In this document: piece by piece, positions 5,933 through 58,430 of the stretch
Position numbering within the stretch: position 1 is the first letter of the stretch
Layout: every line of letters begins with the position of its first letter
From: an uncultured Bacteroidales bacterium
GTDB taxonomy: Bacteria > Bacteroidota > Bacteroidia > Bacteroidales > Paludibacteraceae
NCBI GenBank assembly: GCA_937901225.1
Contig: CALCGX010000127.1
Span: forward strand, 12,643-76,642
DNA length: 64,000 nucleotides
Direction: 5' to 3'
Translations under genes and position numbers: made by a program
Notes under the pieces: model-generated
What the model saw: the letters and a program-made list of their open reading frames with translations, nothing else
Databases searched by the model: none
What the model was told of the DNA's origin: nothing

Positions 5933-5964
5933 TTTGCAGGATTCAAAAAAAAACACTACCTTTG
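5933..5964 (+). promoter_or_regulatory. Bacteroidota sigma-A promoter for 6030..7502
   Basis: TTTG (5933-5936), a 20-nt spacer with A9, then TACCTTTG (5957-5964). About 85 percent identical to the promoter at 54472-54503. Confidence 0.6.
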
Positions 5965-6029
5965 TTGCCGATTTATGGATTTTGACTAACAAAAACACAA
6001 TCTTTTATATTAACTTAAAATTAGAAAAC

Positions 6030-16300: not shown

Positions 16301-16539
16301 TTCGTCTCAAAAACATTACATTGGGATATAGCTTACCAGATAAAGTGTTAAAGAAAATGCATTTTGAGAAGTTCCGCATTTATTTTAGTGCAGAGAATGT
16401 ATGTGAGATTGATAAATTAGGTGATTTGCCTATTGATCCAGAAACTGCTACTTCATCTGGTGATGGTGGAGCGATGGGATTTGGACGTATTTATCCATTT
16501 ACTCGTCAATTGAGTTGCGGTTTGCAAATATCACTTTAA
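13300..16539 (+). CDS. SusC/RagA-family TonB-dependent outer-membrane transporter
   Basis: N-terminal CarboxypepD_reg domain, then LDEVVVVGYDTQRKANLTGAV and VLKDAASSSIYGTRAAFGVILITTK plug motifs. 1079 aa. No STN or anti-sigma-interacting extension. Confidence 0.9.
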   Translation: MKRLAFLFIALATVVVANAAIVTGQVADAQGEPLIGVSVVVTGTSEGTITDFDGFYTIDVTPDAQLQFSYMGYTTVTEKVNNRTTINVVLKEDTRLLDEVVVVGYDTQRKANLTGAVGSVSVEDQLEGRPLANVGTGMQGAVAGLTVTNSSGRLGDTPKFRIRGAVGTLLNEGGSQPLILVDGVEISDISMINADDIKEISVLKDAASSSIYGTRAAFGVILITTKSGSGVDSKFRVNYSNNFSWATPTALPEIAKSYIGAEMALEARNRRVPGTTLFTNSCGLVWNAEDIEYMREWENAFGNADLGSEMVEGRDFIIKSGVPHFWRSWNAADEYINDFSFSQQHNMSFSGTAGKTNYYMGLSYMGQNGVVKVNPDSYNRFSVNYSTDTEIKPWLKVRSKALYTRTNLETPFNFNTASYDALYYLYRWPTIMPYGTYEGEPFRNSVTETAAANMNSDVKDYMRFSVGATFVLGIPDLTLDVDYTYNLDNQNITQRGGTVGGWDFWSGSMSLVDNWAATARNKVDKYQYNRNYHAGNAVLRYKHTWNDAHSLNVFGGMNIEYKEVDYVNAEKRDLLDQTKPEISLAIGDNFIYGSHTSWAIMGFFARVNYAYKNRYLIELNGRFDGSSRFPTDQQWGFFPSGSLGWVASEENFWEVLNPYWSFLKLRASYGSIGNQDIGDNRFRAIMASSNSGWIMGETNVLTFSMPTALADGFTWETIKTINGGVDMRFFNDDLGVSLDVYRRINDGMVVGGSEVPSTFGATAPYENAAQLTTNGWELGIDYHHRFSNGLRLNVSANVSDALTIVTKHPRKTTSVIDGSNYEGKVYGEIWGFTTDRLFQESDFDENGNLLPGIATQTYFENSGYKYKYGPGDVKYMDLDGNGEINWGDKTVENHGDWSRIGNAIPRYEYNFKIGVDWKGIDLNIFFQGVGSRQYWATGSMMIPGWNFSEGTYYAHQTDYWTPENTNAWYPRLAETNQPGQYSASGFNFLCQTRYLLDMSYLRLKNITLGYSLPDKVLKKMHFEKFRIYFSAENVCEIDKLGDLPIDPETATSSGDGGAMGFGRIYPFTRQLSCGLQISL

Positions 16540-16569: not shown

Positions 16570-18351
16570 ATGAAAAAGATATTATTATTGTCACTTACAG
16601 TACTGTTGATGTGCACTTTGGTTGGTTGCGAGGATTTTCTCAACCAACCTCCTTATGATGATTTTACAGATGCAGAGTATTGGAAAAATGAAGATCAAGC
16701 TCGTACATTTATGTATGGCTTCTATACATCAATCTTCTCTGGTTATGGTTCTGGTGCTTCACATGGGCAATTCTTAATGGGGCAAACATCCAACGATGAT
16801 TTTGCTTCGGATGTTGAGCAACAAGATTTGACTCCGCTGGTAATACCTGAGGCTGATGGTTCTTGGAGTTTTACTAATATCCGCAAAGCGAATTACGTAT
16901 TAGAGAATATTGATCGCATTGATGCTAATGCTGCGGCCAAAAATCACTGGCGTGGTGTAGCGCGTTTCTTCCGTGCTTGTTATTATAGCAACCTCGTGTT
17001 CCGTTATGGTGATGTGCCTTGGTATGATCGTGTGCCTGCATTGAGCGATAATGATTATCTCTACAAGGATCGTGATTCACGCACGTTTGTAGATTCTTGC
17101 ATCATGGCAGATTTCCAATATGCAATGGATAGTGTGCGTGCGAATGATGGTAACTTGCAAATCAATAAGTATGTGGTAGCAGCAATGGCATCACGACTTC
17201 TTTTGCGCGAAGGAACATTCCTCAAATACCATAATTTAGATCAAGCCATGGCAGAGCAATGCCTTACGATGGCTAAGAATGCAGCAGAATTAGTAATGAA
17301 GTCGGGCAAGTATGCTGTTGCATCATCCTATAAGAACCTCTTTGTGAGCGAAGATCTGAGTACGAATCCTGAGATTATTATGTATCGTCAGTATGAGGAT
17401 GGTTTATTAGCGCACTCTACACTAGCATATTCTTATACCGAAGCACAAGCTGGTTTGAGCAAATCCCTCGCAGAGGATTTTGTGAATGCCAACGGCTTGC
17501 CTATATACGCTGAAAATGCGAAATGGTTAGCGAAAACGAGTGAAGACTTCTTTGCTAATCGTGACCCTCGTCTTGCAATGTGCATTCGCAATCATTATTG
17601 TATCAAAGGAGAGAGCCTTACTCCGTTCTCATATGCACTCTCTGGATATGCATGGAATAAGTTTATGGATGATAGCAAGGCTGGAGAGAAAAATCCTACA
17701 TGGGCAAGAGAAAAGAATACTACCGATGCACCTTGCGTGCGCTATGCTGAGGTATTGCTCAACTATGTGGAAGCTGCATATGAATTGCATCTTATGTCTA
17801 AATACACCTTTACACAAGCTGATTTGGATAAGTCAATCAATCTCATTCGTGCGCGTGCAGATGTGAACTTGCCTGCATTGCAAATGTTGGGTGATCAACC
17901 TGCTATAAACGGTGTAGCATTTGATGATCCTAAACGCCTGCAAATAGAGCAAAAAGCCAATGATGGTAAATTGATTACCCCATCTTTACTTTGGGAAATT
18001 CGTCGTGAACGACGTGTGGAATTATGTTTGGAAGGCTTCCGTCTCAACGACCTCAAGCGTTGGTGCAAGTTGGATTATATGTGGAATGAATGTAATCCAG
18101 ATATTCGCTATGGTGCATACATTCGTGTAAGCGACTACAAGAATAAGGATAAAGAGATTATCCTTGCAGGTAAGGTAGATCCACTCACCAACGATACTGT
18201 GACCAAAGAGGGGTATATTTTGCGTAATACTTTAGGAAAGCGTAATCGTCCAATTAAGCGTAATTATATCAATCCTATTCCTTCGGGACAAATTACGTTA
18301 TACAAATCCAAAGGATATACATTGTCTCAAAATACAGAATGGGGTTGGTAA
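16570..18351 (+). CDS. SusD/RagB-family nutrient-binding lipoprotein
   Basis: Lipobox LVGC followed by EDFLNQPPYDDFTDAEYW. Position immediately after SusC. 593 aa. Confidence 0.85.
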   Translation: MKKILLLSLTVLLMCTLVGCEDFLNQPPYDDFTDAEYWKNEDQARTFMYGFYTSIFSGYGSGASHGQFLMGQTSNDDFASDVEQQDLTPLVIPEADGSWSFTNIRKANYVLENIDRIDANAAAKNHWRGVARFFRACYYSNLVFRYGDVPWYDRVPALSDNDYLYKDRDSRTFVDSCIMADFQYAMDSVRANDGNLQINKYVVAAMASRLLLREGTFLKYHNLDQAMAEQCLTMAKNAAELVMKSGKYAVASSYKNLFVSEDLSTNPEIIMYRQYEDGLLAHSTLAYSYTEAQAGLSKSLAEDFVNANGLPIYAENAKWLAKTSEDFFANRDPRLAMCIRNHYCIKGESLTPFSYALSGYAWNKFMDDSKAGEKNPTWAREKNTTDAPCVRYAEVLLNYVEAAYELHLMSKYTFTQADLDKSINLIRARADVNLPALQMLGDQPAINGVAFDDPKRLQIEQKANDGKLITPSLLWEIRRERRVELCLEGFRLNDLKRWCKLDYMWNECNPDIRYGAYIRVSDYKNKDKEIILAGKVDPLTNDTVTKEGYILRNTLGKRNRPIKRNYINPIPSGQITLYKSKGYTLSQNTEWGW

Positions 18352-18405: not shown

Positions 18406-20181
18406 ATGAAAAAGAATTTATTTTTCCTCAGTATGGCGGTCTTGAGCATGCTGATGGTTGGTTGTAGTGAACCAGAACAACAAGTCGGTGAAGCTTTGAT
18501 TAAGAATATCTCTATCAAAAATACCACTTGTCAAGGCAAAGTAGATAATACAGCTTTTACAGTTGTATTTGATGAAGTTCCTGCTGAGACACCAGTTGAA
18601 GCATTGCAATTTGATGGTAAATACTCATTAGGAGCAAGTTTGGAGAAAAAAGAATATGACTTCAGTAAGGGCTCATCTGAAGATGGTAAGCAATATATTG
18701 GTACAATTACAGTTGTAAATGGTACTGTATCGCAAGAATATCAGGTAACGCTTAATCTAACTGATCCTACATCAGATCCTAAATTGGTCAAATTAGTGAT
18801 GCAAAAGGCAGATGGAACAAATGTTGATGCACGTGTGTTGGCTGATGCAGAACCATTAGCCGTTGCACTAAATATGGAGGATGCTGATGAAGCTACTTTT
18901 GTAAGTGTTGAACTATATCCTGCACGTGCTTCATATTCTTTTACAGAGGCTATTGATGGTAAGATAACCAAAGATAATCCTGGTCAATTGGTAGTAGAGT
19001 TTATGGGAAGAAAATCATTCTATAACATTACTTTTGCAGCAGCTCCAGCACCAGGTGCAGACCTTACATCACCAATTATACATGATTTTTCTGTAACAAC
19101 GGAGAATACATATGTTGATTTTACAACCCTTACAGAGGGTGCTCTAAATACTCGAGGTTCGGACTTTGATGGAGAGCATGTGCTGATTGTTTCTCGTTCT
19201 GACAATGCAACTCCTACCCATCACCTCTTGAAAGTAAGCGATTTACTCAATGGAACAATCTCTCCAATTGAATTAAGCAAAGAGGGTATAGGTAATGCAG
19301 AAACAGATATGTTTGTTGTTAGCGCAGGTCGTTTAAGCCATGGACATATCTATGTATGTAACCTTGCAACTGCTTTGGGTGATGGACATACATTGAAAGT
19401 ATATCACTATGCGGATGCAACTGCTACTCCCGATGTTTGGGAATGGGATGGAACAGGTTTGGTTGATTTGAATGGTGAGGAAACATTTGTAGTACCTCGT
19501 TTAGGTGATAATATGTCTATTAACTTGGATGAGAATGGTAATGGCTATGCGTTCTTCTGCGGACAGGAGGCTTCTGCGGAACGTATCTATCGTATAGATG
19601 TTGCTAACTTCAACGAATTTTCCAATCCAACTGAAATTACTCTAGAAGAGGCTTTCCTATATTATGGTTATGTAAATCAAGTGGATGAAGATCGTTATTT
19701 GTTGACGAGTCACTATATGCTTTCGACATGGTTGATTGATAAGGATGGTAATCCACTTGTGTATATAGATTTCCAATCTACAGCAGCTGGTTTAAAACCA
19801 CACACAGGAGTTGATCCTCATGTTGTGAAGTACAATGGCGGTTATTACCTTATCTTTGCTTCTCCTTATAACAATACGAAACGTCTTGGCGTTGGTCCAG
19901 CTTTATATATGATTGATATTACCGAAGGCACTCAAGTAGATATTCAAACTGCCTTGCAAAATTTATCGGACACTTTGTGGTTTGATGAAGAAGGTATATG
20001 GGAACCTGATTTCCATTACTCATTAGATGTACTAAATATGGAAGCGGAACCGGCATCTCGTAAAACTGTTGCTGCTTGCGCAGCACAATGTAATGCTGCT
20101 GTCGTAAATGGTAAATTATTAGTGTATGCAGCAGCCGTTGGTGCTGGCTTTACTATCTTAGAGTTTTCTCCTGCGAAATAA
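18406..20181 (+). CDS. PUL-associated surface lipoprotein carrying a copy of module X (SGBP position)
   Basis: Lipobox MVGCSEP. The C-terminal half aligns by eye with module X of the T9SS cargo proteins through the blocks TPTHHLL, ELSKEGI, LKVYHYADATATPDVWEWD and LYMIDITEG. Confidence 0.7.
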   Translation: MKKNLFFLSMAVLSMLMVGCSEPEQQVGEALIKNISIKNTTCQGKVDNTAFTVVFDEVPAETPVEALQFDGKYSLGASLEKKEYDFSKGSSEDGKQYIGTITVVNGTVSQEYQVTLNLTDPTSDPKLVKLVMQKADGTNVDARVLADAEPLAVALNMEDADEATFVSVELYPARASYSFTEAIDGKITKDNPGQLVVEFMGRKSFYNITFAAAPAPGADLTSPIIHDFSVTTENTYVDFTTLTEGALNTRGSDFDGEHVLIVSRSDNATPTHHLLKVSDLLNGTISPIELSKEGIGNAETDMFVVSAGRLSHGHIYVCNLATALGDGHTLKVYHYADATATPDVWEWDGTGLVDLNGEETFVVPRLGDNMSINLDENGNGYAFFCGQEASAERIYRIDVANFNEFSNPTEITLEEAFLYYGYVNQVDEDRYLLTSHYMLSTWLIDKDGNPLVYIDFQSTAAGLKPHTGVDPHVVKYNGGYYLIFASPYNNTKRLGVGPALYMIDITEGTQVDIQTALQNLSDTLWFDEEGIWEPDFHYSLDVLNMEAEPASRKTVAACAAQCNAAVVNGKLLVYAAAVGAGFTILEFSPAK

Positions 20182-20263: not shown

Positions 20264-21142
20264 ATGAGAAAAGGTCTCTTATCGCTCATCTTGTTTCTAT
20301 TGGCAACAATACTTTCAGCCCAAAACATAATGAAAGTGTGGAGCAACGATACACTTATTGAATTTGATATATCTACGATAGATAGCATTACATTTGAAGT
20401 CAAAACAGAATATGTAGGAGTATTTTCTGTAGCAAACAATAAAAGGGTTGCTTTTGCGCCGGGCAACTTGCAATACATTCCTACAGCAGATACTTGGCTC
20501 TTTGCTGCTAATCAGTACGATTATATTGGTACACGCAATATGGTCAATCAAGCGTTTGCCGATACAATAGATTTATTTGCTTGGAGCACAGATACCGACC
20601 CTTCTACCGCATGGGGTGTGACCTTAGAGGATGATAACAACCTCTATGCGGGTAATTTCGTAGATTGGGGCACTACTATTGGTGATGGCAATACATGGCG
20701 TACACTTACGTCTGCAGAGTGGGAATATATGCGTGCTAAGCGTCCTAATGCTTCCAAACTCATTGGAGTTGGTTCAATCAATGGCATACATGGATTAATT
20801 CTCCTTCCTGATGGCTGGATTGCTCCAGATGGTATTACTTTTAAAAGTGGATACAGCGACAAGGAGTATAGTGCTATTGCTTTTGAAGAGTACCAATCCT
20901 TTACCATCGAACAGTGGAATACGATGCAAGCTGCGGGTGCAGTCTTCTTGCCTTGTGCTGGCTTCCGATTGGGGACTTCGTTAGCATATATGCAAATGGC
21001 AGGATTGTATTGGACTTCCTCGCCACATGCAGCATATGGTCCACAGTTTGCTAGTTACTTCCTCTTTATGTGCGATGGCGCAGGTATTGGATACGACACG
21101 CGTAGTGGCGGCAATGCAGTACGATTGGTTAAGGACTTGTAA
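20264..21142 (+). CDS. secreted hypothetical protein, FISUMP/DUF1566-like (weak call)
   Basis: Signal peptide. The blocks FAPGNLQY, WRTLTSAEWEYM, FLPCAGFR and LYWTSS resemble the Fibrobacter major paralogous domain pattern. Confidence 0.6.
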   Translation: MRKGLLSLILFLLATILSAQNIMKVWSNDTLIEFDISTIDSITFEVKTEYVGVFSVANNKRVAFAPGNLQYIPTADTWLFAANQYDYIGTRNMVNQAFADTIDLFAWSTDTDPSTAWGVTLEDDNNLYAGNFVDWGTTIGDGNTWRTLTSAEWEYMRAKRPNASKLIGVGSINGIHGLILLPDGWIAPDGITFKSGYSDKEYSAIAFEEYQSFTIEQWNTMQAAGAVFLPCAGFRLGTSLAYMQMAGLYWTSSPHAAYGPQFASYFLFMCDGAGIGYDTRSGGNAVRLVKDL

Positions 21143-21168: not shown

Positions 21169-22353
21169 ATGAAAAAAATCATTTCTCTTTTGGCTTTGTG
21201 CTGTTGCGCAATGATTATTGTTGCGGCGGAAAATGTTAAAGTTGGAGCAGAGCAAACCAAACAATATCTACCTTTGCTCAAAGGTAAACGTGTCGCGTTG
21301 ATGAGCAATCATACAGGCATTGTTATCCAAGGACAAGATACTATTCACACGCTTGATTTGTTACTCAAGCATGGTGTGAATGTTACTGCTATTTTCTCTC
21401 CTGAGCATGGTTTCCGTGGTACTGCACGCGAGGGCGAACATGTAGCAAGTAGCGTAGATGAGAAGACAGGCATACCTATTCTGTCGCTCTATGATGGTAA
21501 GAGTTACCGTCCTTCTAAAGAAGCAATGGCCACTTTTGATGTGCTTATCACCGACATCCAAGATGTAGGACTGCGTTTCTATACCTATTATATTACGATG
21601 TTTCGCCTCATGGACGCATGCGCACACGAAGGTAAGCAGTTTATCGTCTTCGACCGACCAAACCCTAATGGTTACTATGTGGATGGTCCTATCCTTGATA
21701 TGAAGCACAAATCTGGCGTGGGTGCATTGCCTATCCCTGTGGTGCATGGTATGACCTTGGGTGAACTGGCATTGATGATCAATGGTGAGAACTGGCTATA
21801 CGATTCGCTCCAAGTGGACCTGACTGTCATTCCTTGCAAAAATTATACTCACCAAACGTTATATCGTCTGCCAGTAGCGCCTTCGCCTAACCTACGCAAC
21901 ATGCTTTCTATTTACCTCTATCCTGCTGTGTGCTTGTTTGAGGCAACCCCTGTGTCTTTAGGTCGAGGTACGGATAAGCCATTCTTGTGCTATGGTCACC
22001 CCAATTTCAATGCGCCTCGCACCGAACCAAGTGCATATGGTCCTGCTATCACTTTCACGCCTAATCAATCTACTCAAAAAGGTCGCATTTGCGATGGTGT
22101 AGATCTCAGTGGTATGACCGAAGAAGAGGCACGTAAGGTAGGTTTCTCTTTGCGCTATCTGTTAGATGCTTACAAACATCTCAATATGGACAACTATTTC
22201 TTCCGTCCTTTCTTTGAGTTGTTGGTGGGACAAGATTATGTGCGTAAGATGATCAATCAAGGTAAGAGTGAGGAAGATATTCGTGCTTGCTGGCAAGAAG
22301 ATGTCGCTAAGTTCCAAGAGCAACGTCGTCCATATCTCCTCTACGAAGAATAA
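21169..22353 (+). CDS. DUF1343 / NamZ-like exo-beta-N-acetylmuramidase (GH171-type)
   Basis: LLKGKRVALMSNHTG, FSPEHGFRG and ITDIQDVGLRFYTY are characteristic DUF1343 blocks. Signal peptide present. Confidence 0.8.
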   Translation: MKKIISLLALCCCAMIIVAAENVKVGAEQTKQYLPLLKGKRVALMSNHTGIVIQGQDTIHTLDLLLKHGVNVTAIFSPEHGFRGTAREGEHVASSVDEKTGIPILSLYDGKSYRPSKEAMATFDVLITDIQDVGLRFYTYYITMFRLMDACAHEGKQFIVFDRPNPNGYYVDGPILDMKHKSGVGALPIPVVHGMTLGELALMINGENWLYDSLQVDLTVIPCKNYTHQTLYRLPVAPSPNLRNMLSIYLYPAVCLFEATPVSLGRGTDKPFLCYGHPNFNAPRTEPSAYGPAITFTPNQSTQKGRICDGVDLSGMTEEEARKVGFSLRYLLDAYKHLNMDNYFFRPFFELLVGQDYVRKMINQGKSEEDIRACWQEDVAKFQEQRRPYLLYEE

Positions 22354-22401: not shown

Positions 22402-23853
22402 ATGAATTCATTAACTATTTTATTAGTCATTGCAGCTTATTTTGCGCTGCTGTTTTTTATTTCGTATTTAGCAGGACGTAAGGCAGACAATGCAGGTTTT
22501 TTCTCAGGAAACCGCAGTAGCAATTGGCTACTGGTAGCCATGTCCACCATTGGTGCTGCTATCTCGGGGGTCACTTTTGTAAGTGTACCAGGTATGGTTG
22601 CCACATCGGGTTGGGCATATATGCAGATGGTGCTTGGTTTCACCGTAGGTCAATTCTTGATTGCCTATGTACTTATCCCATTGTACTACAAACTCAACCT
22701 TACATCCATTTACCAATACCTCCAACAGCGTTTTGGCATGAATACCTACAAGTCGGGTGCTTGGCTCTTCTTTGTGAGCAAGATGCTTGGCGCTAGTGTG
22801 CGCTTGTTTGTGGTAAGCGAAGTGCTTCAGTTGTTGGTGTTCGATCGTTTAGCAGTGCCTGTCCCATTCTGGGTAAATGCCATTATTACTGTACTCATCG
22901 TGTATCTCTGCACCTTCAAGGGGGGCGTTAAGTCGCTCATATGGACAGATTTGCTCAAGACCTGCTGTCTTATCCTGTCTGTGGCTCTCTGCATCTACTT
23001 TGTGCTGCGCGCGGGCGTGAATATAGAAGGTTGGGGAGCAAGTGATATGACCCGCACCTTCTTCTTCGATGACCCTAAGAGCGGTAACTACTTCTGGAAA
23101 CAATTCCTGGCGGGTGTCTTCCTCGTGATTGCTACCACTGGTCTTGATCAAGACCTCATGCAGCGAACACTCTCATGCAAGAACCCACGCGAGAGTCAAA
23201 AGAACCTCATCGTAGGTGCACTCATGCAAATCGTAGTGATTGGTCTCTTCCTTTTCTTGGGTTATTTGCTCTATACCTATGCTGCTCAAACGGGTGTTGC
23301 CGAAGTTGCCAACCTCAAGGGCGATGAGGTATTCCCATTCTTGGCTACGGGCAACTACTTCCCTGTGATTGTGGGTGTCCTCTTTATTATCGGTTTTATC
23401 GCAGCGGCATATTCCGCAGCGGGTGGAGCCTTGACGGCACTAACAACCTCGTTCACGGTGGATATTCTCAACAAGGAGAAGGCCGACAACCTTACCAAAG
23501 TACGCACCATAGTGCACATAGGCATGGCTATACTGATGGCTGCTTGTATCTATGTCATCCACCTATTGAATGATGATTCGGTGATTCAAACCGTATATAA
23601 AGTTGCAAGTTATACCTATGGTCCATTGTTGGGTATGTTCTGTTTTGGTATCTTTACCAAGCAGCAAGTACGCGACCGTTGGATTCCATTGGTAGTGATA
23701 GCTGCACCTGTAATCACATGGATTATTGATGTCAATTCAGCCGTATGGTTTAATGGTTATGTGTTCTCTCACGAGCGCTTAATCTTGAATGCGCTACTCA
23801 CGTTTGTAGGTATGCTTTGCTTGTTGAATAGCACTGCAAAGCCAACCAAATAA
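22402..23853 (+). CDS. sodium:solute symporter (SSS) family transporter
   Basis: 483 aa, about 12-13 hydrophobic helices, SSS-like N-terminal region. The family call is from overall pattern only. Confidence 0.65.
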   Translation: MNSLTILLVIAAYFALLFFISYLAGRKADNAGFFSGNRSSNWLLVAMSTIGAAISGVTFVSVPGMVATSGWAYMQMVLGFTVGQFLIAYVLIPLYYKLNLTSIYQYLQQRFGMNTYKSGAWLFFVSKMLGASVRLFVVSEVLQLLVFDRLAVPVPFWVNAIITVLIVYLCTFKGGVKSLIWTDLLKTCCLILSVALCIYFVLRAGVNIEGWGASDMTRTFFFDDPKSGNYFWKQFLAGVFLVIATTGLDQDLMQRTLSCKNPRESQKNLIVGALMQIVVIGLFLFLGYLLYTYAAQTGVAEVANLKGDEVFPFLATGNYFPVIVGVLFIIGFIAAAYSAAGGALTALTTSFTVDILNKEKADNLTKVRTIVHIGMAILMAACIYVIHLLNDDSVIQTVYKVASYTYGPLLGMFCFGIFTKQQVRDRWIPLVVIAAPVITWIIDVNSAVWFNGYVFSHERLILNALLTFVGMLCLLNSTAKPTK

Positions 23854-42600: not shown

Positions 42601-42948
42601 GTGACTAATTCGTATTCTCATACAGCCCAAATCATGGATACACCTGGCATGATGCACCATGCAGGGTATGTGTTTAAGGATCCATGTACGGGTTGGAATT
42701 CGTTTACTGCTTCAGGTACTGGCAGCTTTGCTGCTATTTCGGCTGAGGTAGGTGGTAGTGTTTGTACCCAGGAAAACCTGTTTGGTGGTCCTGTGAAAGT
42801 GAATGGAATGGTATATGCAGCTCGTCCTGATAGACCACCAATAGGACAGGAGATGCCAGTAGGAGGTATGCTGTTGCCGATGTTGGTGATGGTGTGTGCA
42901 TATGTGTTGGTAAAAGTGGTTAAACGTAAGAAATCTCAAGCCTTATGA
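42601..42948 (+). CDS. small tail-anchored hypothetical protein (start GTG 42601 or ATG 42634)
   Basis: No N-terminal signal peptide. C-terminus MPVGGMLLPMLVMVCAYVLVKVVKRKKSQAL. The stop overlaps the start of the giant gene (ATGA at 42945-42948). Confidence 0.5.
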   Translation: MTNSYSHTAQIMDTPGMMHHAGYVFKDPCTGWNSFTASGTGSFAAISAEVGGSVCTQENLFGGPVKVNGMVYAARPDRPPIGQEMPVGGMLLPMLVMVCAYVLVKVVKRKKSQAL

Positions 42949-49780: not shown

Positions 49781-50608
49781 ATGAAAAAAGTCTATCTTTT
49801 TTTGGCGTTGGCTATCCCAATGATGGCAAGCGCACAGTTGTTGGAGGTGGCTTCTACTGAGCGCGTTGCTGCGAATGCAGATGCGAAGGTGGCAGCATTC
49901 AGCCCTAATGGCGACTATCTCCTCCTGACAAACACCAGTAACCAAGGTTTACAACGCATGGATTTGGCTACCCAGAAGGTAACCAAAATCACCAGTGCAG
50001 ATGGCGCAGGTTACAATGTGAAGATTGCTCAAGACGGCAATCAAATCATTTATCGTGAGGTAACTCTCGATGCTACTAAGAGCCGCGTGAGCAACATTAT
50101 TCGCCACGATTTGGCTGCTAACAAGGCACAAGTGGTAGCAAAGCAACAATCACATCTTGCTGCTATGGTGGCTGATGTGAATCGTCCTTCTTTCTCAGTT
50201 CAAGACCGTCAATTGATGATGACCAAGAACGGCAAGACTATTGTTTTCTCTCCTAATGGTCAACAATACAGCTACCACTGGGCATCTCTTTCTCCTAACG
50301 GTAAGAAAGTGGCTTACTACATCAGCGCAGTAGGTTGCTTCGTATGCGACATTGATGGCAAGAATATCCAATTCATCGGTCACAACTGCCTCGCTCCAGT
50401 ATGGTATAATGACAATATTATCCTTGGTTGTGATGCTAAGGACAATGGCGAAGTGGTTTTGGAATCTGCAATCGTAGCTTACAGCTTGGACGGCAAGAAA
50501 CAAGTGCTGACCAATGGCGAGCAGATTGCTGTGTTCCCACAAGCAGCTGAGGGCAAGATTGCTTACTCTACCTCAGAAGGTGAAATCTATGTTATGAATA
50601 TTAAATGA
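49781..50608 (+). CDS. secreted TolB-like beta-propeller-blade protein (split-off homolog of the N-terminus of 9533..13303)
   Basis: Signal peptide. WASLSPNGKKVAYYISAVGCFVCDIDGKNIQFIGH aligns with FWASVSPDEKHLVYVTARYGTFVCDINGENVRSMG of the fused protein. The stop overlaps the next start (ATGA). Confidence 0.8.
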   Translation: MKKVYLFLALAIPMMASAQLLEVASTERVAANADAKVAAFSPNGDYLLLTNTSNQGLQRMDLATQKVTKITSADGAGYNVKIAQDGNQIIYREVTLDATKSRVSNIIRHDLAANKAQVVAKQQSHLAAMVADVNRPSFSVQDRQLMMTKNGKTIVFSPNGQQYSYHWASLSPNGKKVAYYISAVGCFVCDIDGKNIQFIGHNCLAPVWYNDNIILGCDAKDNGEVVLESAIVAYSLDGKKQVLTNGEQIAVFPQAAEGKIAYSTSEGEIYVMNIK

Positions 50609-53600
50609 TGCATACTACTATGAAAAAGACATTATTGATTATGGCAGCATGCGTAGTTAGCATCGCCATGTTTGCAACTGACTTGACAGGCAAACGTATT
50701 TATATCAACCCAGGTCACGGTAGTTGGGGTCCTAACGACCGTCCTAATGCTACTATCCCTTATCCTAACTTGGCATCTACTGGCATGCCTGATACTTGCG
50801 GTTTCTACGAGACCAACACCAACCTGTGGAAGTGTCTTGAATTGCGCGACCGCTTGGAGGCAGCCGGTGCTTTTGTGATGATGTCACACACACAAGGTGG
50901 TCCTTGGCCATACGAGAAAGTGGATGGCGAATATCCAGACTACACCTATGAGCACTATAAGAATTTGCCTGATTATGAGAAATACAATCGTCCATTGTTG
51001 GATATCGCTGATGAGGCTGAGGCAAACAATATGGACTACTTCATTTCTGTACACTCTAATGCGGCAACTGATGGTAATACCGTTAACTATTTGTCTTACT
51101 TCTATCGTGGTCAAACTGATGGTACACACGTAGTTCCAGGTGCTGTTGACATGTGTAAGGCTTCTTGGTATCATGCTTTTGAGTGCCGCTCTATGGACGG
51201 TCTTGAGCCAAACAACTACGACACCCGTGATCCAGAGACTTCTAAGCACATCTTGGCTGATATGAACTTCTATGGAAGTAGTTATGATGCTACTCTTCCT
51301 TCTTCTGGTAAGACTTATACTGGTTACCTCGGCGTATTGCACCATGGTGTTCCTGGTTTCCTCGTAGAGGGTTACTTCCATACCTATCAACCAGCTCGTC
51401 ACCGTGCGTTGAACCCTGACTATTGCAAGCAAGAGGGTATTCGCTACTATCGTGGTATTGTGGATTACTTCAAGGCTGAGCCAGAGACCAAGGGTTATAT
51501 CTTGGGTACAGTAAAGGATGAGCACAATGCCTTCGTACACGAGCTCTACAAGTATGCTCCTAACACCAATGACCAATACAAGCCATTGAACGGTGCTGTG
51601 GTTACATTGAGCAAAGAGAGCGGCGAAGTGGTGGCTACCTATCAAGTAGATAGTTGCTACAATGGTTTGTTCTACTTCCCTGACCTTGAGCCAGGTACTT
51701 ACAAGTTGGATGCAACAATGGATGGTTACAAACCATTGCACCGCAAATACCAAACCGTAGTCGTTGAGGCAAATGCTACCAGTTATCCATTCCTCTTCTT
51801 GGAGGATACTGCTCATATTGATCTCACTGGTCTCTATGAAGATTATCCAAATCCAGAGCAACCTGCTTATGCAGCATTGCCAGCGCAATTCAACATGAAG
51901 CAAAATGACCCTAAAGACAATACCGCTAAGATCAAGGGTACTATCAAACGTACTATCCAACACGCTGACTCTGTATTCTACCTCACACACGAGGAGGATG
52001 GTACAGCGCATATCTACGTGCTCAACAATACTACTGGCGCATTGGATACCATCTCTACCGTAGGTATCGTTCCAGTTGATCCAACCAACCCTGGTGATCA
52101 CTTGGCACTCTCTGATATCGCTATCACTTGCGATGGTAAATTGGTAGGTGTTAACTATGTTCGCTGCTACTATGGTGCTAGTTACGTAGAGTCTGGCTAC
52201 AAAGAAGGTACTTCTCGTTTCTATATTTGGGATGACTTCTTTGCAGATCCTGCACTATGGTTTACAAGCCAATTCACTAGCAACTCATTAAAGTCTGACC
52301 AAGGTTATACCATGGCTCTCTATGGTATGTCCACCAACTGCCATATCATCACCACTGGTGTTCACCGCTATGGTAATGGTGCTCGCTACAGCGTTTATAA
52401 CGTAGTAAATGATATGGTAGCTAGCGAAACATACTATGGCTGGGAACTTGGTGCAGGTTCAGATGAAGAAGCTGAATTTGACGAGTTGTACGATGGTACA
52501 GATTTCCGTCTTACTCTTTCTCCACGTGGCGAGAAGACCAACCTCATTATGGATGCAGAGAAAATGGCTCCAGTAGAGTTTACATTCCCAGAGGCTTCTA
52601 ACCTACCACTCGTTGTTTTTGGTGGTATAGATTCTACCCTCATTGGTACCAAGTTCCAAGGCGCATCATACTTCATGTACGCAGGTCGCAGCATGATGGT
52701 TACTCCATTCCAAAACGCTGAAGGCTTTGTAGCTGGTCTTAAGCTCTTTGACATCACCGACGGTATGGACAATGCTGTAGAGGTGAAATTGGATTACGGT
52801 TTCTTTGAGCCTTACGGAGCTCCTACCGCTCACGCAAGTGCAGGTGCATATGTGGATGGTGCAGTGCTTAACCTCTATCTCTATGTAGATGGTTTGGTAT
52901 GGTCATTCACAACTGTTGGCGTTCAACAACCTATCGTTGAGCGTATGAACGCATTGAACCTCAAGGTTGCTAAAACCGAATTCGACTACATCTTCTCATT
53001 CGTAGCAAACCAAGATGCTCCATACGCAGCTATCCTCTTCTACGATGAGAACAAAGAGGTGGTTGAGCAAATTGACATCGAAGCTACTAAGGGCGAGAAC
53101 CAAGTACGCGTTGCTGTTGACATGCTTCCATCTGAGGCTAAAACTTGGGGTATTACCCTCACAGGTACTCCTGTTCCTGGTATGGGCCTTGTTGCAGATC
53201 ACGTAGATTCTACTATGCTCAAACCATATGCTATCGTTAATAGTCATCCTCTCACCGACCAATTCGGTCAACTCTATGTGATGGAAGGCACAGGTGATAA
53301 CAAGGGTGTATCTATCTACGACATCAATATGAACAAGCTCAACACTACTCCATATGTATCTACCGATGCTGCATGGAATGCTCCTAAGCGTTTGGCAATT
53401 GCATCTGACGGTACATTGTTCATCGCAGAGTATAGCGACGATCATAGTGGTGTATATGTGATGGATCCTGCTCAACCTGAGAATATTACCCAATTCTTTG
53501 TTGGTGAGCGTGATGGTAATGGTGTTATTTCTAATGGTGGCGTTAACGTAGGTGCTTCTACCGCAGGTATCTCTATCTACAAAGAGGGTGCAGAGTCTAA

Positions 53601-54342
53601 ACTCGTCGTTTACAACGAGGACTTTGGTGCTTCTTTGGGTAATATCTTGATCTACAATATCGGTCAAGAGGACGGTTCTATCGTTAAGACTTGGGAAGGT
53701 GCTCCTTCTGAGGTTTATGGTAAGGGCAGCAACTTGGCTGGTCTTGTTAACAAGAACGGTCAACCTATTCTCACTGACTACGGATTCTTCGTTTCTACTC
53801 TCCGTTATGCAGGTGGTAACAATAGCTACGCTACTTCTTGCCGCTACTACAACTTTGATCAAGAGTGCGAATTCTCTACTCACTACGATCAATATGTAGG
53901 TTATGTCAATGGTAGCAACGATGGTGCTTTGGCTCTCAGCAACGATCAAAAGTACCTCGTATTGCCAGACGATAACAACCAATTCGTAGTATTTGAGTGC
54001 GCATGGGATGAAGAGGGTAAACTTAGCGTGAAGTATGTAGAGTCATTTGTTCACAACCTTGGCCCTGTTTACCAATTGAGCTTCGACTACGCAGGTAACT
54101 TGATCGCTTCTGCAGCAGGTCACGTAGCTCGCTACACCATGCCAACAGCTGATAACACCATCGTTATTCCAGCTAAGACTGCGTTGGCAGATGCTCCTGA
54201 GTACGATCCAACAGCTGTAGAAAATGTGAAACCTGCTGTTCTTGATCGCAATGCTCCTATGTATGACATACTTGGTCGCCAAGTGGATAAGACATATCGC
54301 GGTATTGTTATCCAAAACGGACAAGCATATCTCGTGCGTTGA
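50605..54342 (+). CDS. multidomain secreted protein: Amidase_3, CarboxypepD_reg-like, module X, module Y, T9SS-like tail
   Basis: Amidase signature at about 50690-51420: NPGHGSWG, FYETNTNL, FISVHSNAAT, PGFLVEGYFH. FYFPDLEPGTYKLDA block. Tail PMYDILGRQVDKTYRGIVIQNGQAYLVR. Confidence 0.85.
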   Translation: MMHTTMKKTLLIMAACVVSIAMFATDLTGKRIYINPGHGSWGPNDRPNATIPYPNLASTGMPDTCGFYETNTNLWKCLELRDRLEAAGAFVMMSHTQGGPWPYEKVDGEYPDYTYEHYKNLPDYEKYNRPLLDIADEAEANNMDYFISVHSNAATDGNTVNYLSYFYRGQTDGTHVVPGAVDMCKASWYHAFECRSMDGLEPNNYDTRDPETSKHILADMNFYGSSYDATLPSSGKTYTGYLGVLHHGVPGFLVEGYFHTYQPARHRALNPDYCKQEGIRYYRGIVDYFKAEPETKGYILGTVKDEHNAFVHELYKYAPNTNDQYKPLNGAVVTLSKESGEVVATYQVDSCYNGLFYFPDLEPGTYKLDATMDGYKPLHRKYQTVVVEANATSYPFLFLEDTAHIDLTGLYEDYPNPEQPAYAALPAQFNMKQNDPKDNTAKIKGTIKRTIQHADSVFYLTHEEDGTAHIYVLNNTTGALDTISTVGIVPVDPTNPGDHLALSDIAITCDGKLVGVNYVRCYYGASYVESGYKEGTSRFYIWDDFFADPALWFTSQFTSNSLKSDQGYTMALYGMSTNCHIITTGVHRYGNGARYSVYNVVNDMVASETYYGWELGAGSDEEAEFDELYDGTDFRLTLSPRGEKTNLIMDAEKMAPVEFTFPEASNLPLVVFGGIDSTLIGTKFQGASYFMYAGRSMMVTPFQNAEGFVAGLKLFDITDGMDNAVEVKLDYGFFEPYGAPTAHASAGAYVDGAVLNLYLYVDGLVWSFTTVGVQQPIVERMNALNLKVAKTEFDYIFSFVANQDAPYAAILFYDENKEVVEQIDIEATKGENQVRVAVDMLPSEAKTWGITLTGTPVPGMGLVADHVDSTMLKPYAIVNSHPLTDQFGQLYVMEGTGDNKGVSIYDINMNKLNTTPYVSTDAAWNAPKRLAIASDGTLFIAEYSDDHSGVYVMDPAQPENITQFFVGERDGNGVISNGGVNVGASTAGISIYKEGAESKLVVYNEDFGASLGNILIYNIGQEDGSIVKTWEGAPSEVYGKGSNLAGLVNKNGQPILTDYGFFVSTLRYAGGNNSYATSCRYYNFDQECEFSTHYDQYVGYVNGSNDGALALSNDQKYLVLPDDNNQFVVFECAWDEEGKLSVKYVESFVHNLGPVYQLSFDYAGNLIASAAGHVARYTMPTADNTIVIPAKTALADAPEYDPTAVENVKPAVLDRNAPMYDILGRQVDKTYRGIVIQNGQAYLVR

Positions 54343-54566: not shown

Positions 54567-57500
54567 ATGAAAAAACTTTTACTATCTCTCCTTGCTCTTG
54601 TAGCAATGATTGGTACAATCAGCGCGCAACGCGCTTGGGCGTACGATTTGGGGTTGGGCTATGCTTCCGATACCTACACATTCTCTTTCAAAGCAACTAC
54701 AGCTGCTAATGCGACCCTTATCTTTACGGATGCTGAGGGTACTGAGTTGGCAACACATGATGCTGGTGCTGTTGTTGCAGGTGCTAATACTGTTTCTTTG
54801 CCCAAAGCTCAACTTCCAGAAGGTGACGCTATTTATTGGGCAGTAAAATTAACAGGTGAAGCAATCGCAAATTTAGTAGAAGTTACTGATGCTTCTAAAG
54901 GTATTTACAGCTTCTACTTGCCACAAGGTGTAGCCGTTGACAACAATCCAGAGTCTTCTACTTTTGGTAATATTTACGTAGCTCAATCAACTAACGGTGC
55001 ATCTGATGGTGGTTCTACCCGTGCTGATAACCAAAAACAAGGTATCTTTATTTATGATCAAACATTGGCAGAACTCAATCCTACATCAAATGTAGGTATC
55101 ATTCCAAGCAATGTGACTTTATCTTCTACCACTGATCGTCAAGCGATGAAGCGTATCGTTATCAATCCTGTAACCAACGAAGTTGCATTTATTCACAACT
55201 TGGATCCGGTGGCAATCTGGGCAGTACCTGCTAACAACGTAGGGGGCGAGGCTAAGAACCTTATTGATGGTCTTGGATTTACAGCTGCCAATGCTGCTTG
55301 CTTCGGTGAGGATGGTTCTTTGTATGTATTAGTATCTCCTGGTTATCCAGCTCCAGGTTCACTCTACAAGATAACTGATGGTGTAGTAGATACATTGTTT
55401 GCTAATTATGGAAAATTTGGTAATGCAGACGTAGCTTTGGCTTCTGATGGTCGTGGTGGTGTTTGGATAGCTCAAAACCGTGGTCAATTAGACGGATTCA
55501 ACCAACTTACCCACGTTAATGCTGCTGGTGAGATAGACTTCGAAGTAAACTCTACTACCCCTAACGGCATTGAAAGTGCTAATACTGCTCGTGGTACTAT
55601 GGCTTACAATCCTAATGAAGATGTACTCGCTTTGGGTATTGGTGCTACAAATACCATTGGTGCATCTCTTTATAAGGTGACATATGATGCAGAGACTGGT
55701 GTTCCCTCGTTGGCATTCTTGGCAAAGACTCCTTCTTTGGGTAAGAACGTGGATGGTCTTGCATTTGACTACGCTGGTGACCTTTATGGTTTGTCCGCAA
55801 ATAAAGAGCGTTTCTATAAATATGCTGTTCCTACCAACAACAACGTTTGCAGAACTCCTGCCCCTAAAGCACAGGTGATTGTAAACTCTTCTTCTGTAGT
55901 GACCTACACCATTAATGCAACTGCAAATGATGACAAGATGGGTACCGTGACAGGTGGTGGTGTGTATCTAAAAGATGCAGAAGTTATTTTAACAGCAACT
56001 CCTGCTGATGGTCATACTTTTGTTAAGTGGAGCAACGAGTCCACCGAAAACCCATTGATATTTACTGCTATTGAAGACCTTACAATTTCTGCAATCTTCG
56101 AAGTTCTTTCTTATACCGTTACTCTTTCTGCTAATGATGCAACTAAAGGTACTGTTGAAGGTACTGGCACTTATGAATATGGTACAGAAGTAACTCTCTC
56201 TGCAACTCCTGCTGATGGTTATGAATTTGTTGATTGGAGCAATGGAAGCAAGGAGAATCCTTTGACAATTACCGTAAAAGAAGATACCGAACTTACCGCA
56301 AACTTCCGCGCTGTGATGGCTTCCTCTATCACTTTGAATGCTCTGCCTGTACAAGACTATAGCGCAAGCATCGTAGGTACTATCAAACGTGCTGTTCAAA
56401 ACGGTGAGAACACCATCGTTCTTTCACACGAAGTAGATGGCACTCCTCACATCTACAACGTAGCTCATGCTACACAAACCGTTACTGAACTTTCTCAAGA
56501 AGGTGTAAATGCTGCGGCTGATGGTTTCCTCGCTATCTCCGATATTGCAGTTACCGAAGATGGTAAATTAGTGGCTTGTAACTATGTACATTGCACATTT
56601 ACCCCTTCAAATACTTCTTATTTCTATATTTGGAATGATTTAGCAGCAGCTCCATCTGTATGGTTTACTTCTCAAAAGTCAGGTAATTACAACGATGCGT
56701 ATATGGGATATACCATGGCGTTGAAAGGCACCTCTCAAAATGCTGAAGTAACAATCTCAGCGTTTAATAAGAGCAATAGTAATACTCGTTATTCACACCT
56801 TTATGTGGTGGATGGTACTTACAGTGATGCAAGTTATAAGTATAGTCGAGACAATGCGGCATTACATCCTAATACATTAGGAAAGAATACTTATGAGTTG
56901 AACGCATCTCCACTTGCTGCTGGCAAATGGATTGTTGATGGCGAATTGAATTCTCCTATTGAATTTGTAGAGAAAAACGCAGTAGCTATTGATACTTATA
57001 CTGCACTTAATTCAAATGTTCTCGGTAAGAAATACAATGGTGCTTATTATCTCAAGAACTACAACGACCACCATTTCATGATTGCCCCATATGCTAACGA
57101 GGAGGGACTGCTTGCTGGTGTGAAAGTGATTGGTATCACAGATGGTTTTGCTGCACCAACCGTACTAGCTTCTAATACTGACCTTGATATTGCTGTAGAG
57201 GCAACCACTGCTTCTGCAACGGCTGTAGTTGATGCAGAAGGCAATTTGACTATCCACCTCTTTGCGGATGCACGAGTATATACCTTTACAGAGAAAGCGG
57301 TTGATCCTACTCCTCCAGAAGTAGAACTTGTAGGTGTTGTTAAACGTGCACTCACCATTGGCGAAAGCACCGTTGTTCTCACTCACGAGGCTAATGGTAC
57401 TCCTCATATCTACAATATCGTAGGCGAAGAAATCGCAGAGATTTCTCAAGAAGGCGTTATCGCTCGCGATCCTGAGAACCCAGGCGATCATCTTGCAATC

Positions 57501-58430
57501 TCTGATATCGCTGTTACTGAGGATGGCAAACTTGTAGCTGTCAACTATGTACGTTGCTATAATGCTCCTGCTTATGTAGAGAGTGGATACAAAGAGGGTA
57601 CTACTCGCTTCTATATGTGGGATGCGCTTACTGCAGATCCAACTATTTGGTTTACATCACAATACACCTCTAATTCACTCAAATCTGATCAAGGTTACAC
57701 CATGGCACTCAATGGTTCTTCTACCGATTGCCAAATCATCATCACGGGTGTTCACCGTTATGGCAATGGTGCACGCTTTAGCAACTTCAAGGTGGTGGAT
57801 GGTGCTTTGTCTAGCACATCATACTTCGGTTGGTCACTTGGTTTAGGTTCAAATGAAGAGGCTGTGTTTGATGAGGCTTTAGATGGTACTAACTTCCAAC
57901 TCTCAGTATCTCCTCGCAATAATGCAGACTTTATCATGGATGCAGAGAAGATGGCTCCAGTAGAGTGGCAAATACCTGCTACCTCTAAAGAAGATCCTAT
58001 CGTTCTTGGCGAATTGGATGCAGCACTTGTTGGCGTGAAATTCAATGGTGTTACTTATCTTACCGTAGGCGCACAAACTATCATGGTAGCGCCTTATGCT
58101 GACGCAGAAGGCAAACTCGCAGGTGTTAAGGTGCTTGACATCACCGCAGGTCTTGATAAGGCTACTGAGCTCAAAGTAGCTAACTTAGACGCTGCTGTTG
58201 AGGCTACCGCTGCTGCTACTGCTGTGGCTGTTGCAGACAACGTGCTCACCATTACCCTCGTAGCTGATGCTACTCTCCATGTACTTGAGGTGGAACTTGA
58301 GAAGGGGCCTGCTACCGCTCTTGAGAACATCGCTGTTGAGGGTAAAGCAATCAAGATGATTAAGAACGGTCAATTGATCATTATCAAGAACGGCATTCAA
58401 TACAACGTTCAAGGTGCGGTTGTAAAATAA
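54567..58430 (+). CDS. multidomain secreted protein: module Y, two InlB-B-repeat-like (Listeria-Bacteroides repeat) domains, two tandem copies of module X, T9SS-like tail
   Basis: Signal peptide. The N-terminus is paralogous to 6030..7502. Repeats ...GTVTGGGVYLKDAEVILTATPADGHTFVKWSN and ...GTVEGTGTYEYGTEVTLSATPADGYEFVDWSN. Module X copies at about 56320-57280 and 57320-58290. Tail IKMIKNGQLIIIKNGIQYNVQGAVVK. Confidence 0.85.
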   Translation: MKKLLLSLLALVAMIGTISAQRAWAYDLGLGYASDTYTFSFKATTAANATLIFTDAEGTELATHDAGAVVAGANTVSLPKAQLPEGDAIYWAVKLTGEAIANLVEVTDASKGIYSFYLPQGVAVDNNPESSTFGNIYVAQSTNGASDGGSTRADNQKQGIFIYDQTLAELNPTSNVGIIPSNVTLSSTTDRQAMKRIVINPVTNEVAFIHNLDPVAIWAVPANNVGGEAKNLIDGLGFTAANAACFGEDGSLYVLVSPGYPAPGSLYKITDGVVDTLFANYGKFGNADVALASDGRGGVWIAQNRGQLDGFNQLTHVNAAGEIDFEVNSTTPNGIESANTARGTMAYNPNEDVLALGIGATNTIGASLYKVTYDAETGVPSLAFLAKTPSLGKNVDGLAFDYAGDLYGLSANKERFYKYAVPTNNNVCRTPAPKAQVIVNSSSVVTYTINATANDDKMGTVTGGGVYLKDAEVILTATPADGHTFVKWSNESTENPLIFTAIEDLTISAIFEVLSYTVTLSANDATKGTVEGTGTYEYGTEVTLSATPADGYEFVDWSNGSKENPLTITVKEDTELTANFRAVMASSITLNALPVQDYSASIVGTIKRAVQNGENTIVLSHEVDGTPHIYNVAHATQTVTELSQEGVNAAADGFLAISDIAVTEDGKLVACNYVHCTFTPSNTSYFYIWNDLAAAPSVWFTSQKSGNYNDAYMGYTMALKGTSQNAEVTISAFNKSNSNTRYSHLYVVDGTYSDASYKYSRDNAALHPNTLGKNTYELNASPLAAGKWIVDGELNSPIEFVEKNAVAIDTYTALNSNVLGKKYNGAYYLKNYNDHHFMIAPYANEEGLLAGVKVIGITDGFAAPTVLASNTDLDIAVEATTASATAVVDAEGNLTIHLFADARVYTFTEKAVDPTPPEVELVGVVKRALTIGESTVVLTHEANGTPHIYNIVGEEIAEISQEGVIARDPENPGDHLAISDIAVTEDGKLVAVNYVRCYNAPAYVESGYKEGTTRFYMWDALTADPTIWFTSQYTSNSLKSDQGYTMALNGSSTDCQIIITGVHRYGNGARFSNFKVVDGALSSTSYFGWSLGLGSNEEAVFDEALDGTNFQLSVSPRNNADFIMDAEKMAPVEWQIPATSKEDPIVLGELDAALVGVKFNGVTYLTVGAQTIMVAPYADAEGKLAGVKVLDITAGLDKATELKVANLDAAVEATAAATAVAVADNVLTITLVADATLHVLEVELEKGPATALENIAVEGKAIKMIKNGQLIIIKNGIQYNVQGAVVK

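Follow-up and report, generated by a model that had tools for sequence, protein, structure and literature searches.

We analysed a window of 64,000 nucleotides (nt) from an uncultured Bacteroidales bacterium of the Paludibacteraceae (assembly GCA_937901225.1, contig CALCGX010000127.1, positions 12,643 to 76,642 of the forward strand), in which a repeated protein module, here called X, occurs in large exported proteins, and a relative of it in a lipoprotein encoded beside SusC- and SusD-like genes. Profile comparisons indicate that X is very probably a distant, so far uncatalogued branch of the superfamily to which the Pfam family DUF4623 belongs, and structure modelling predicts that it folds as a six-bladed beta-propeller. 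As for its role, we tentatively favour a non-catalytic surface propeller that recognises a peptidoglycan-derived substrate, a reading drawn from position and association. The computed results are the repeats with their homology, the fold prediction, the architectures of the proteins and the conservation of gene order. All coordinates are positions in the window, the X-bearing or X-related open reading frames (ORFs) are called proteins A, B, C and D, and gene content was taken from the ORF listing, the translations and Pfam scans.

Three full copies of X were found in the window. Two of them lie in tandem in protein A (1287 amino acids (aa), 54567..58430, plus strand), copy A1 at 56361..57296 (aa 599-910) and copy A2 at 57318..58295 (aa 918-1243), while copy B occupies 51919..52914 (aa 439-770) of protein B (1245 aa, 50605..54342, plus strand), all three on the plus strand. 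The X profile was built from the window copies and metagenomic relatives and then iterated over 167 domain instances. The resulting hidden Markov model (HMM) scored 386 bits with A1 (profile positions 4-333), 424 bits with A2 and 379 bits with B. Protein C (1256 aa, 9533..13303, plus strand) carries a shortened and divergent copy at 11156..11788 (aa 542-752, plus strand; 51 bits), which a six-frame scan with the iterated profile detected with an E-value of 1e-15. This copy covers profile positions 10-147 and 215-319, with about 67 central positions, corresponding to about one blade, missing, and it could be matched to X block by block by eye. When the X profile was aligned to the single C sequence with hhalign, 40 columns only were aligned and the iterated HMM was needed. 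The six-frame scan of the whole window found no copy of X beyond A1, A2, B and C.

At the protein level, A2 (aa 907-1235) and B (aa 429-763) are 53-55% identical (BLASTP, E 1e-104), A1 and A2 are 44% identical, and A1 and B are 32-36% identical (BLASTP, E 5e-44). In the same comparison among the four proteins, C and B were colinear over their full length with 27% identity (E 2e-72). An earlier, sequence-only reading of this DNA had described a module of about 320 aa in five copies. The module itself stands, with similarity far above chance, and the coordinates proposed for all five sites agree with the HMM envelopes within about 40 nt; however, the copy in C is shortened, and the identity of about 70% proposed for A2 and B was too high. 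Five of the seven conserved blocks quoted in that reading were found in A1, A2 and B by a relaxed search, but MDAEKMAPVE was present in A2 and B only. The block (F/Y)Y.W....P..WFTSQ gave no regular-expression match as encoded, but in the alignment all three copies have it (FYIWND...PSVWFTSQ in A1). In the lipoprotein, DIT.G is the sole block that is literally present.

The lipoprotein, protein D (591 aa, 18406..20181, plus strand), begins with MKKNLFFLSMAVLSMLMVGC-SEPEQ, and the lipobox LMVGC can be read by eye at aa 16-20. Its N-terminal immunoglobulin (Ig)-like domains are followed by a propeller as the putative binding domain. By its score against Pfam, D is an ordinary member of the catalogued family DUF4623 (PF15416; 160.6 bits against a cut-off of 28.9, E 5.9e-47, aa 214-588), with the propeller region at 19045..20169. 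It also matched the Protein Data Bank (PDB) entry 4FTD with an E-value of 4e-26 as a single sequence and 5e-49 with the family profile. 4FTD is BACEGG_03550 of Bacteroides eggerthii, a structural-genomics structure of unknown function. The core of D that aligns to X lies at 19156..19929 (plus strand, aa 251-508).

The X HMMER profiles gave D about 2 bits, and the D-family profile gave protein A at most 8 bits. Likewise, DUF4623 was not matched by isolated X modules (A1, A2, B, C) in Pfam at E<=10, nor by the full proteins that carry them at E<=0.01. The link between X and D, which the HMMER profiles miss, is drawn from HH-level comparison only. With the first alignments, hhalign matched X to DUF4623 with 92.8% probability (E 3.9e-7). 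This value was 94.5% (E 7.8e-8) with the 167 X instances and 95.6% (E 1.1e-8, 221 columns) after the addition of DUF4623 proteins of the 4FTD type from Bacteroides and Prevotella, with all alignments spanning 221-231 columns. In the controls, X against the unrelated propeller Y (described below) gave 1.4%, Y against DUF4623 0.3-0.6%, and reversed or column-shuffled DUF4623 at most 0.3%. The lipoprotein thus holds up in a profile-profile alignment, and the proposal that it is a fifth copy is right as to homology, but it is a remote homologue that such a comparison is needed to detect. A BLASTP match between A1 and D (E 4e-7) was not used, as it had been computed against four sequences and would lose its significance in a real database.

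That the module could not be assigned to a known family holds for X but not for D. The isolated modules gave only noise against Pfam at E<=10 (DUF1176 at 0.13; Lactonase at 0.012), nothing relevant came from searches of the PDB sequences with A1 or the X profile, and NCBIfam had no match for A, B, D, a protein consisting mainly of Y, or a 292-aa secreted protein encoded near D. D, on the other hand, is a DUF4623 protein with a structure, 4FTD, available for its family. As DUF4623 has no known function, membership in it does not give the module an unrelated role.

The strength of the match differed between subgroups of X. The X modules of amidase-type proteins alone matched DUF4623 with 96.2% probability (E 2.6e-9), as against 40.6% for the Paludibacteraceae proteins that combine Y, InlB B-repeats and X (hereafter Y-InlB-X proteins), indicating that the amidase-type X is the evolutionary bridge to DUF4623. 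Positions common to X and DUF4623 are N81, Y104/W106, P113..W116, G131 and the DIT.G motif; these are mostly Gly, Pro and aromatic residues, in addition to one Asn and DIT.G, and they look structural. Across the X family R15, D68, D74, Y104, W106, R158 and E222 are conserved, and the polar residues among them, R15, D68, D74, R158 and E222, are not kept in DUF4623.

An AlphaFold2 model of A1, based on an alignment of 11 sequences, had a pLDDT of 78 and a pTM of 0.84 and was all-beta with about 25 strands, which fits six four-stranded blades. The top PDB fold match of this model was 4FTD (Foldseek E 1.7e-7, TM-score 0.58), nearly equalled by six-bladed sialidases (E 2.6e-7, TM-scores 0.52-0.60). 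Further matches were pseudaminidase, the paraoxonase PON1, GH145 and propeller lectins, and a search of a viral structure library gave generic propeller matches only. Since the margin over generic propellers is small, the predicted fold agrees with the profile comparison and is no proof by itself.

X is rare: an exhaustive HMMER search (E<=0.001) found it in 287 clusters among 1.84 billion representative proteins. In a scan with one genome per species it was present in 52 loci, nearly all in metagenome-assembled genomes (MAGs) of Paludibacteraceae and in a few other Bacteroidales. The genomes nearest to that of the window are uncultured Paludibacteraceae MAGs from the guts of ruminants and other animals. 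The names that databases give to the cluster members are 'hypothetical protein' and 'N-acetylmuramoyl-L-alanine amidase' only.

Domain architectures were mapped with the window's own domains onto the 147 representatives listed. About 70 of these have the order Amidase_3-CarboxypepD_reg-X-Y, including some in distant Bacteroidales. Proteins B and C are of this kind: in B, Pfam assigned aa 32-285 to Amidase_3 and aa 324-390 to CarboxypepD_reg, and X, Y and a short C-terminal motif follow, and in C a PD40-like N-terminus precedes Amidase_3, CarboxypepD_reg, the shortened X and Y. About 60 further representatives consist of Y, InlB B-repeats, one to three X modules and a short C-terminal motif. 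These Y-InlB-X proteins are expanded in Paludibacteraceae, and protein A is one of them, with a signal peptide, Y at aa 21-445 (Y HMM, 428 bits), two InlB B-repeat domains (Pfam Flg_new_2, twice), X, X and the motif. A few representatives have X alone, followed by a genuine Por_Secre_tail. Pfam identified no catalytic domain in protein A or in 43 sampled Y-InlB-X proteins. The other modules seen in Y-InlB-X proteins were InlB B-repeats (21 of 36); a few of the proteins carried starch-binding modules (SusF_SusE, CBM26 and X25).

X is nearly always accompanied by Y, which is a different domain. Modelling and fold search indicate for Y an Ig-like sandwich and a six-bladed propeller of the NHL type, with matches to Pizza6, the NHL domain of TRIM2/3, the filamin-NHL region of Lin41 and TolB, as well as sialidase entries. 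One protein of the window has Y without X (522-aa ORF, 5934..7502, likely ATG at 6030, plus strand). It consists of a signal peptide, Y (Y HMM E 1e-98, profile positions 1-443) and the short C-terminal motif, and it had no match in Pfam or NCBIfam. With this stand-alone Y protein and D, both propeller types of the amidases are also present as separate proteins in the SusC/SusD locus.

That locus, at 3368-23853, looks like a SusC/SusD-type peptidoglycan utilisation locus. Its members are a GH20 gene on the minus strand (3368..5611, Pfam), assigned to the polysaccharide utilisation locus (PUL), and, on the plus strand, the Y-only gene, the gene of a GHL10-family protein that is an enzyme partner in the locus (7576..9504; PF02638, E 6e-64), protein C, a SusC-like TonB-dependent transporter (13300..16539; Pfam Plug and TonB_dep_Rec_b-barrel), a SusD-like protein directly upstream of D (16570..18351; Pfam SusD_RagB), D, and, as a further enzyme partner, a NamZ-family exo-beta-N-acetylmuramidase (21169..22353; NamZ_N E 6.5e-75, NamZ_C E 3e-34). 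The 292-aa secreted ORF without a family match is at 20264..21142, and a sodium:solute symporter (SSF) is encoded downstream of NamZ at 22402..23853. The stop codon of C overlaps the start of SusC (13300-13303), which suggests that the exported amidase is translationally coupled to the SusC/SusD genes. The X-bearing proteins A and B, on the other hand, are not encoded next to susC/susD.

The gene order around D is conserved. In all seven sampled contexts, from Paludibacteraceae, Bacteroides-like bacteria, Prevotellaceae and others, the DUF4623 gene directly follows SusC-SusD, confirming the earlier proposal that the lipoprotein occupies the position of SusE/F. Paludibacteraceae keep the order amidase, SusC, SusD, DUF4623, 295-aa ORF, NamZ, SSF, with about 55% protein identity in other members of the family (locus L053), and in loci of this type NamZ lies two genes downstream of DUF4623. 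In three of the seven contexts, of the Bacteroides or Prevotella type, the gene after DUF4623 is GHL10, once followed by that of a GH9/CE4 protein. Cwp19 of Clostridioides difficile, a lytic transglycosylase acting on peptidoglycan, belongs to GHL10 by its catalytic domain (PMC6016235), and NamZ enzymes cleave the peptide-free peptidoglycan glycan strands made by amidase (bioRxiv 10.1101/2021.12.02.470905). In related loci the homologues of the 292-aa protein, which has WxxLTxxEW and YWTSS-type motifs by eye, have their place between DUF4623 and NamZ; some are also found near genes of X proteins (loci L017 and L021).

Proteins A, B and C have N-terminal signal peptides without a lipobox cysteine and, at the other end, short conserved motifs. 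They had been taken for cargo of the type IX secretion system (T9SS), but no sorting-domain model matches the C-termini. Por_Secre_tail (PF18962) and TIGR04183 did not match the full A, B, C, GHL10 or Y-only proteins, nor the isolated C-termini at E<=10, and hhalign of the short C-terminal motif against the C-terminal domains of Por_Secre_tail-positive X relatives gave 0.9%. Por_Secre_tail is carried by three distant X proteins (P0239, P0257 and P0266). Secretion of A, B and C by the T9SS is plausible. A, the GHL10 protein and the Y-only protein, which are exported and not related otherwise, end in a common motif, K.I.NGQL.I...G..YN..G..V(K) (58390-58430, 9440-9504 and 7430-7502, respectively). 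The same K.I.NGQL motif is present in most metagenomic relatives and matches no sorting-domain model; it may be a lineage-specific sorting signal.

X is fused to Amidase_3, and DUF4623 is encoded beside SusC/SusD, GHL10 and NamZ, so both branches are tied to peptidoglycan-active enzymes. The SusE/F position, the lipobox of D, the structural appearance of the shared residues and the polar residues that are not shared favour a recognition propeller without catalytic activity, and the place of X among binding-type modules in Y-InlB-X proteins is in line with this. From these associations we infer that the proteins are at the surface, that they bind a ligand and that this ligand is peptidoglycan, and likewise each step of the following pathway. 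In B and C, which are exported amidases, the two propeller modules X and Y would hold peptidoglycan fragments or sacculi while Amidase_3 strips the stem peptides at the surface. The glycan strands or muropeptides so produced would then be kept at the SusC/SusD transporter by lipoprotein D, and GHL10 would cut them, with import to follow. After import, GH20 and NamZ could release N-acetylglucosamine (GlcNAc) and N-acetylmuramic acid (MurNAc), and the SSF symporter may take up the released sugars. The sequence-only reading had seen in the module the substrate-recognition unit common to the import apparatus and the secreted enzymes. In agreement with this, the propeller accompanies peptidoglycan-active enzymes in both settings, but the Y-InlB-X proteins lack a catalytic domain, and 'secreted enzymes' therefore does not fit them.

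Several points weigh against the favoured reading. Some Paludibacteraceae X proteins carry the starch-binding modules CBM26, X25 or SusF_SusE, which fits a generic or variable role better; with these combinations and the non-catalytic Y-InlB-X proteins, X is not demonstrably specific for peptidoglycan. GHL10 is not exclusively peptidoglycan-active, as activity on starch is reported for a member from Deinococcus (PMC9967864). The connection of X with DUF4623, at an hhalign probability of about 95%, is highly probable and not certain, and the Foldseek score of 4FTD is only marginally above those of sialidases. Surface display through the T9SS is putative, as the C-termini of the window proteins match no sorting-domain model. 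Finally, our literature search found no paper on DUF4623, and the matches to the string '4FTD' were unrelated to this protein.

Alternatively, X and DUF4623 may be lectin-like propellers with a ligand that need not be peptidoglycan and a specificity that varies by copy, so that only some copies, if any, bind the cell wall. Such variation would suit the diversity of the copies (44% identity between A1 and A2, 36% between A1 and B), the starch-binding partners of X just mentioned and the propeller lectins among the fold matches, while the Bacteroides DUF4623 PUL with the GH9/CE4 protein points to polymers of glucosamine or GlcNAc generally. We nevertheless consider it unlikely, given that no architecture is older or more widespread than the Amidase_3 fusion and that the recurrent neighbours of DUF4623 are GHL10 and NamZ.

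X and DUF4623 could also be docking propellers that make protein-protein contacts with SusC/SusD or another outer-membrane component, leaving ligand recognition to Y, SusD or carbohydrate-binding modules. What all X and DUF4623 proteins share is export and a probable position on the outer surface next to machinery of the SusC/SusD type, not a catalytic partner; in many Y-InlB-X proteins X is the final large domain, with the C-terminal motif behind it, and the residues conserved across the superfamily have a structural look. Most X genes, however, are not adjacent to SusC/SusD genes, arrays of two or three X modules in tandem are more in keeping with multivalent binding of a ligand than with docking, and Bacteroides and Prevotella have DUF4623 but no X-family locus in the genome scan. 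In our judgement docking has a small chance of being the explanation.

It is very improbable that X is a catalytic propeller of a new kind, for example a glycosidase, a lyase or an enzyme that cleaves peptidoglycan, in a sialidase-like fold, which would make protein A an enzyme: six-bladed enzymes (sialidases, pseudaminidase, PON1, GH145) do dominate the fold matches, the X family does conserve Arg, Asp, Glu, Tyr and Trp, and MurNAc bears a carboxylate, as does sialic acid, but the conserved polar residues are not kept in DUF4623 and lie for the most part inside predicted beta-strands of typical blade motifs, isolated X matches no BNR/Asp-box, sialidase or other enzyme family in Pfam at E<=10, and DUF4623 is found in the non-catalytic SusE/F position. 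A sialidase-like active site of Arg, Tyr and Glu was set aside because these residues are not kept in DUF4623 and are located in strands.

Some further features of the window were observed. A PD40-like ORF (49781..50608) upstream of protein B overlaps the start of B by 4 nt. Between aa 137-216 of this ORF and aa 21-99 of protein C (window 9533-9830 region) the identity is 40% (E 2e-21), and C therefore looks like a partial fusion of a two-gene cassette. The pair of a PD40 ORF and an Amidase-X-Y gene is kept in many Paludibacteraceae loci and also in Bacteroidales that are distant (loci L049-L051). Essentially no Pfam matches were obtained for two exported proteins of very large size, 2220 aa (42945-49607) and 1598 aa (33203-37999). 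The end of the former resembles a type A T9SS sorting domain by eye, where Pfam reports none, and the latter has a weak fn3 match only. Downstream of protein A, a 564-aa ORF (58569-60263) contains the direct peptide repeat LQLKVDS LQLKVDS at about 59200-59260, which probably arose by tandem duplication of a short in-frame segment.

In the dense communities of the gut, fragments of peptidoglycan serve as a nutrient and, in addition, as a signal to the innate immunity of the host, and their capture and import by Bacteroidales is poorly described. If X and DUF4623 bind cell-wall glycans, 4FTD, a structure without a function, gains a testable role and a new targeting module for cell-wall hydrolases is defined, and the SusC-SusD-DUF4623-GHL10 genes of cultivable Bacteroides and Prevotella would offer a tractable model. 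If they do not bind, what remains is a clean annotation and a new family at Pfam level, of about 290 clusters, tied to Amidase_3 proteins. In its widest form, which we put forward as a rather speculative possibility, X and DUF4623 would make up a new family of peptidoglycan-binding propellers, and SusC-SusD-DUF4623-GHL10, joined in some lineages by NamZ, GH20 and amidase, would be a widespread, undescribed outer-membrane system with which gut Bacteroidales, including Bacteroides and Prevotella, collect the cell-wall fragments of other bacteria. In Paludibacteraceae the module would have grown into a large repertoire of proteins for capture at the surface. In the literature searched, whose coverage was incomplete, no description of a SusC/SusD-type peptidoglycan locus or of a function for DUF4623 was found; with such coverage the absence of papers is weak evidence of novelty.

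Compared with DUF4623 and 4FTD, to which D belongs, X aligns to the propeller over about 220 columns and has the N, Y/W, P..W, G and DIT.G motifs in common, but in sequence searches it finds neither the Pfam model nor 4FTD. X is located inside large exported multidomain proteins, sometimes in tandem, whereas DUF4623 is found on a lipoprotein of 450-590 aa after SusD. D, in turn, is similar to SusE and SusF lipoproteins in its place directly after SusD, which is kept across genera, in its lipoprotein signal peptide, in its N-terminal Ig-like domains and in having a putative binding domain. In contrast to them, it has no SusE/SusF Pfam match, and its putative binding domain is a beta-propeller instead of a beta-sandwich carbohydrate-binding module.

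The proposed role of X, a non-catalytic targeting module fused to a hydrolase, here Amidase_3, is also that of known cell-wall-binding modules such as CWB2 of Cwp19 (PMC6016235), LysM, SH3b, SPOR and PGRP. In Pfam, neither the isolated modules nor proteins A to D had a sequence match to any of these families, and X, as a propeller of about 320 aa, differs from them in fold and size. The sialidase-like propellers of GH33 and pseudaminidase and the PLL/PHL lectins of Photorhabdus resemble X in fold (TM-scores 0.5-0.6, Foldseek E 1e-7 to 1e-5), but the identity is 8-14%, X has no BNR/Asp-box, and the unrelated Y also matches sialidases, so the resemblance is generic. With its amidase, GH20 of the beta-N-acetylglucosaminidase type, NamZ and sugar transporter, the locus in the window is reminiscent of the AmiE-NagZ-NamZ system of Bacillus subtilis and of NamZ/AmpG/MurT of Tannerella forsythia (bioRxiv 10.1101/2021.12.02.470905). 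The T. forsythia paper reports no Sus-type genes (bioRxiv 10.1101/2021.12.02.470905), and in contrast to those salvage systems the enzymes of the window are arranged around SusC/SusD, together with a DUF4623 lipoprotein and propeller-bearing amidases.

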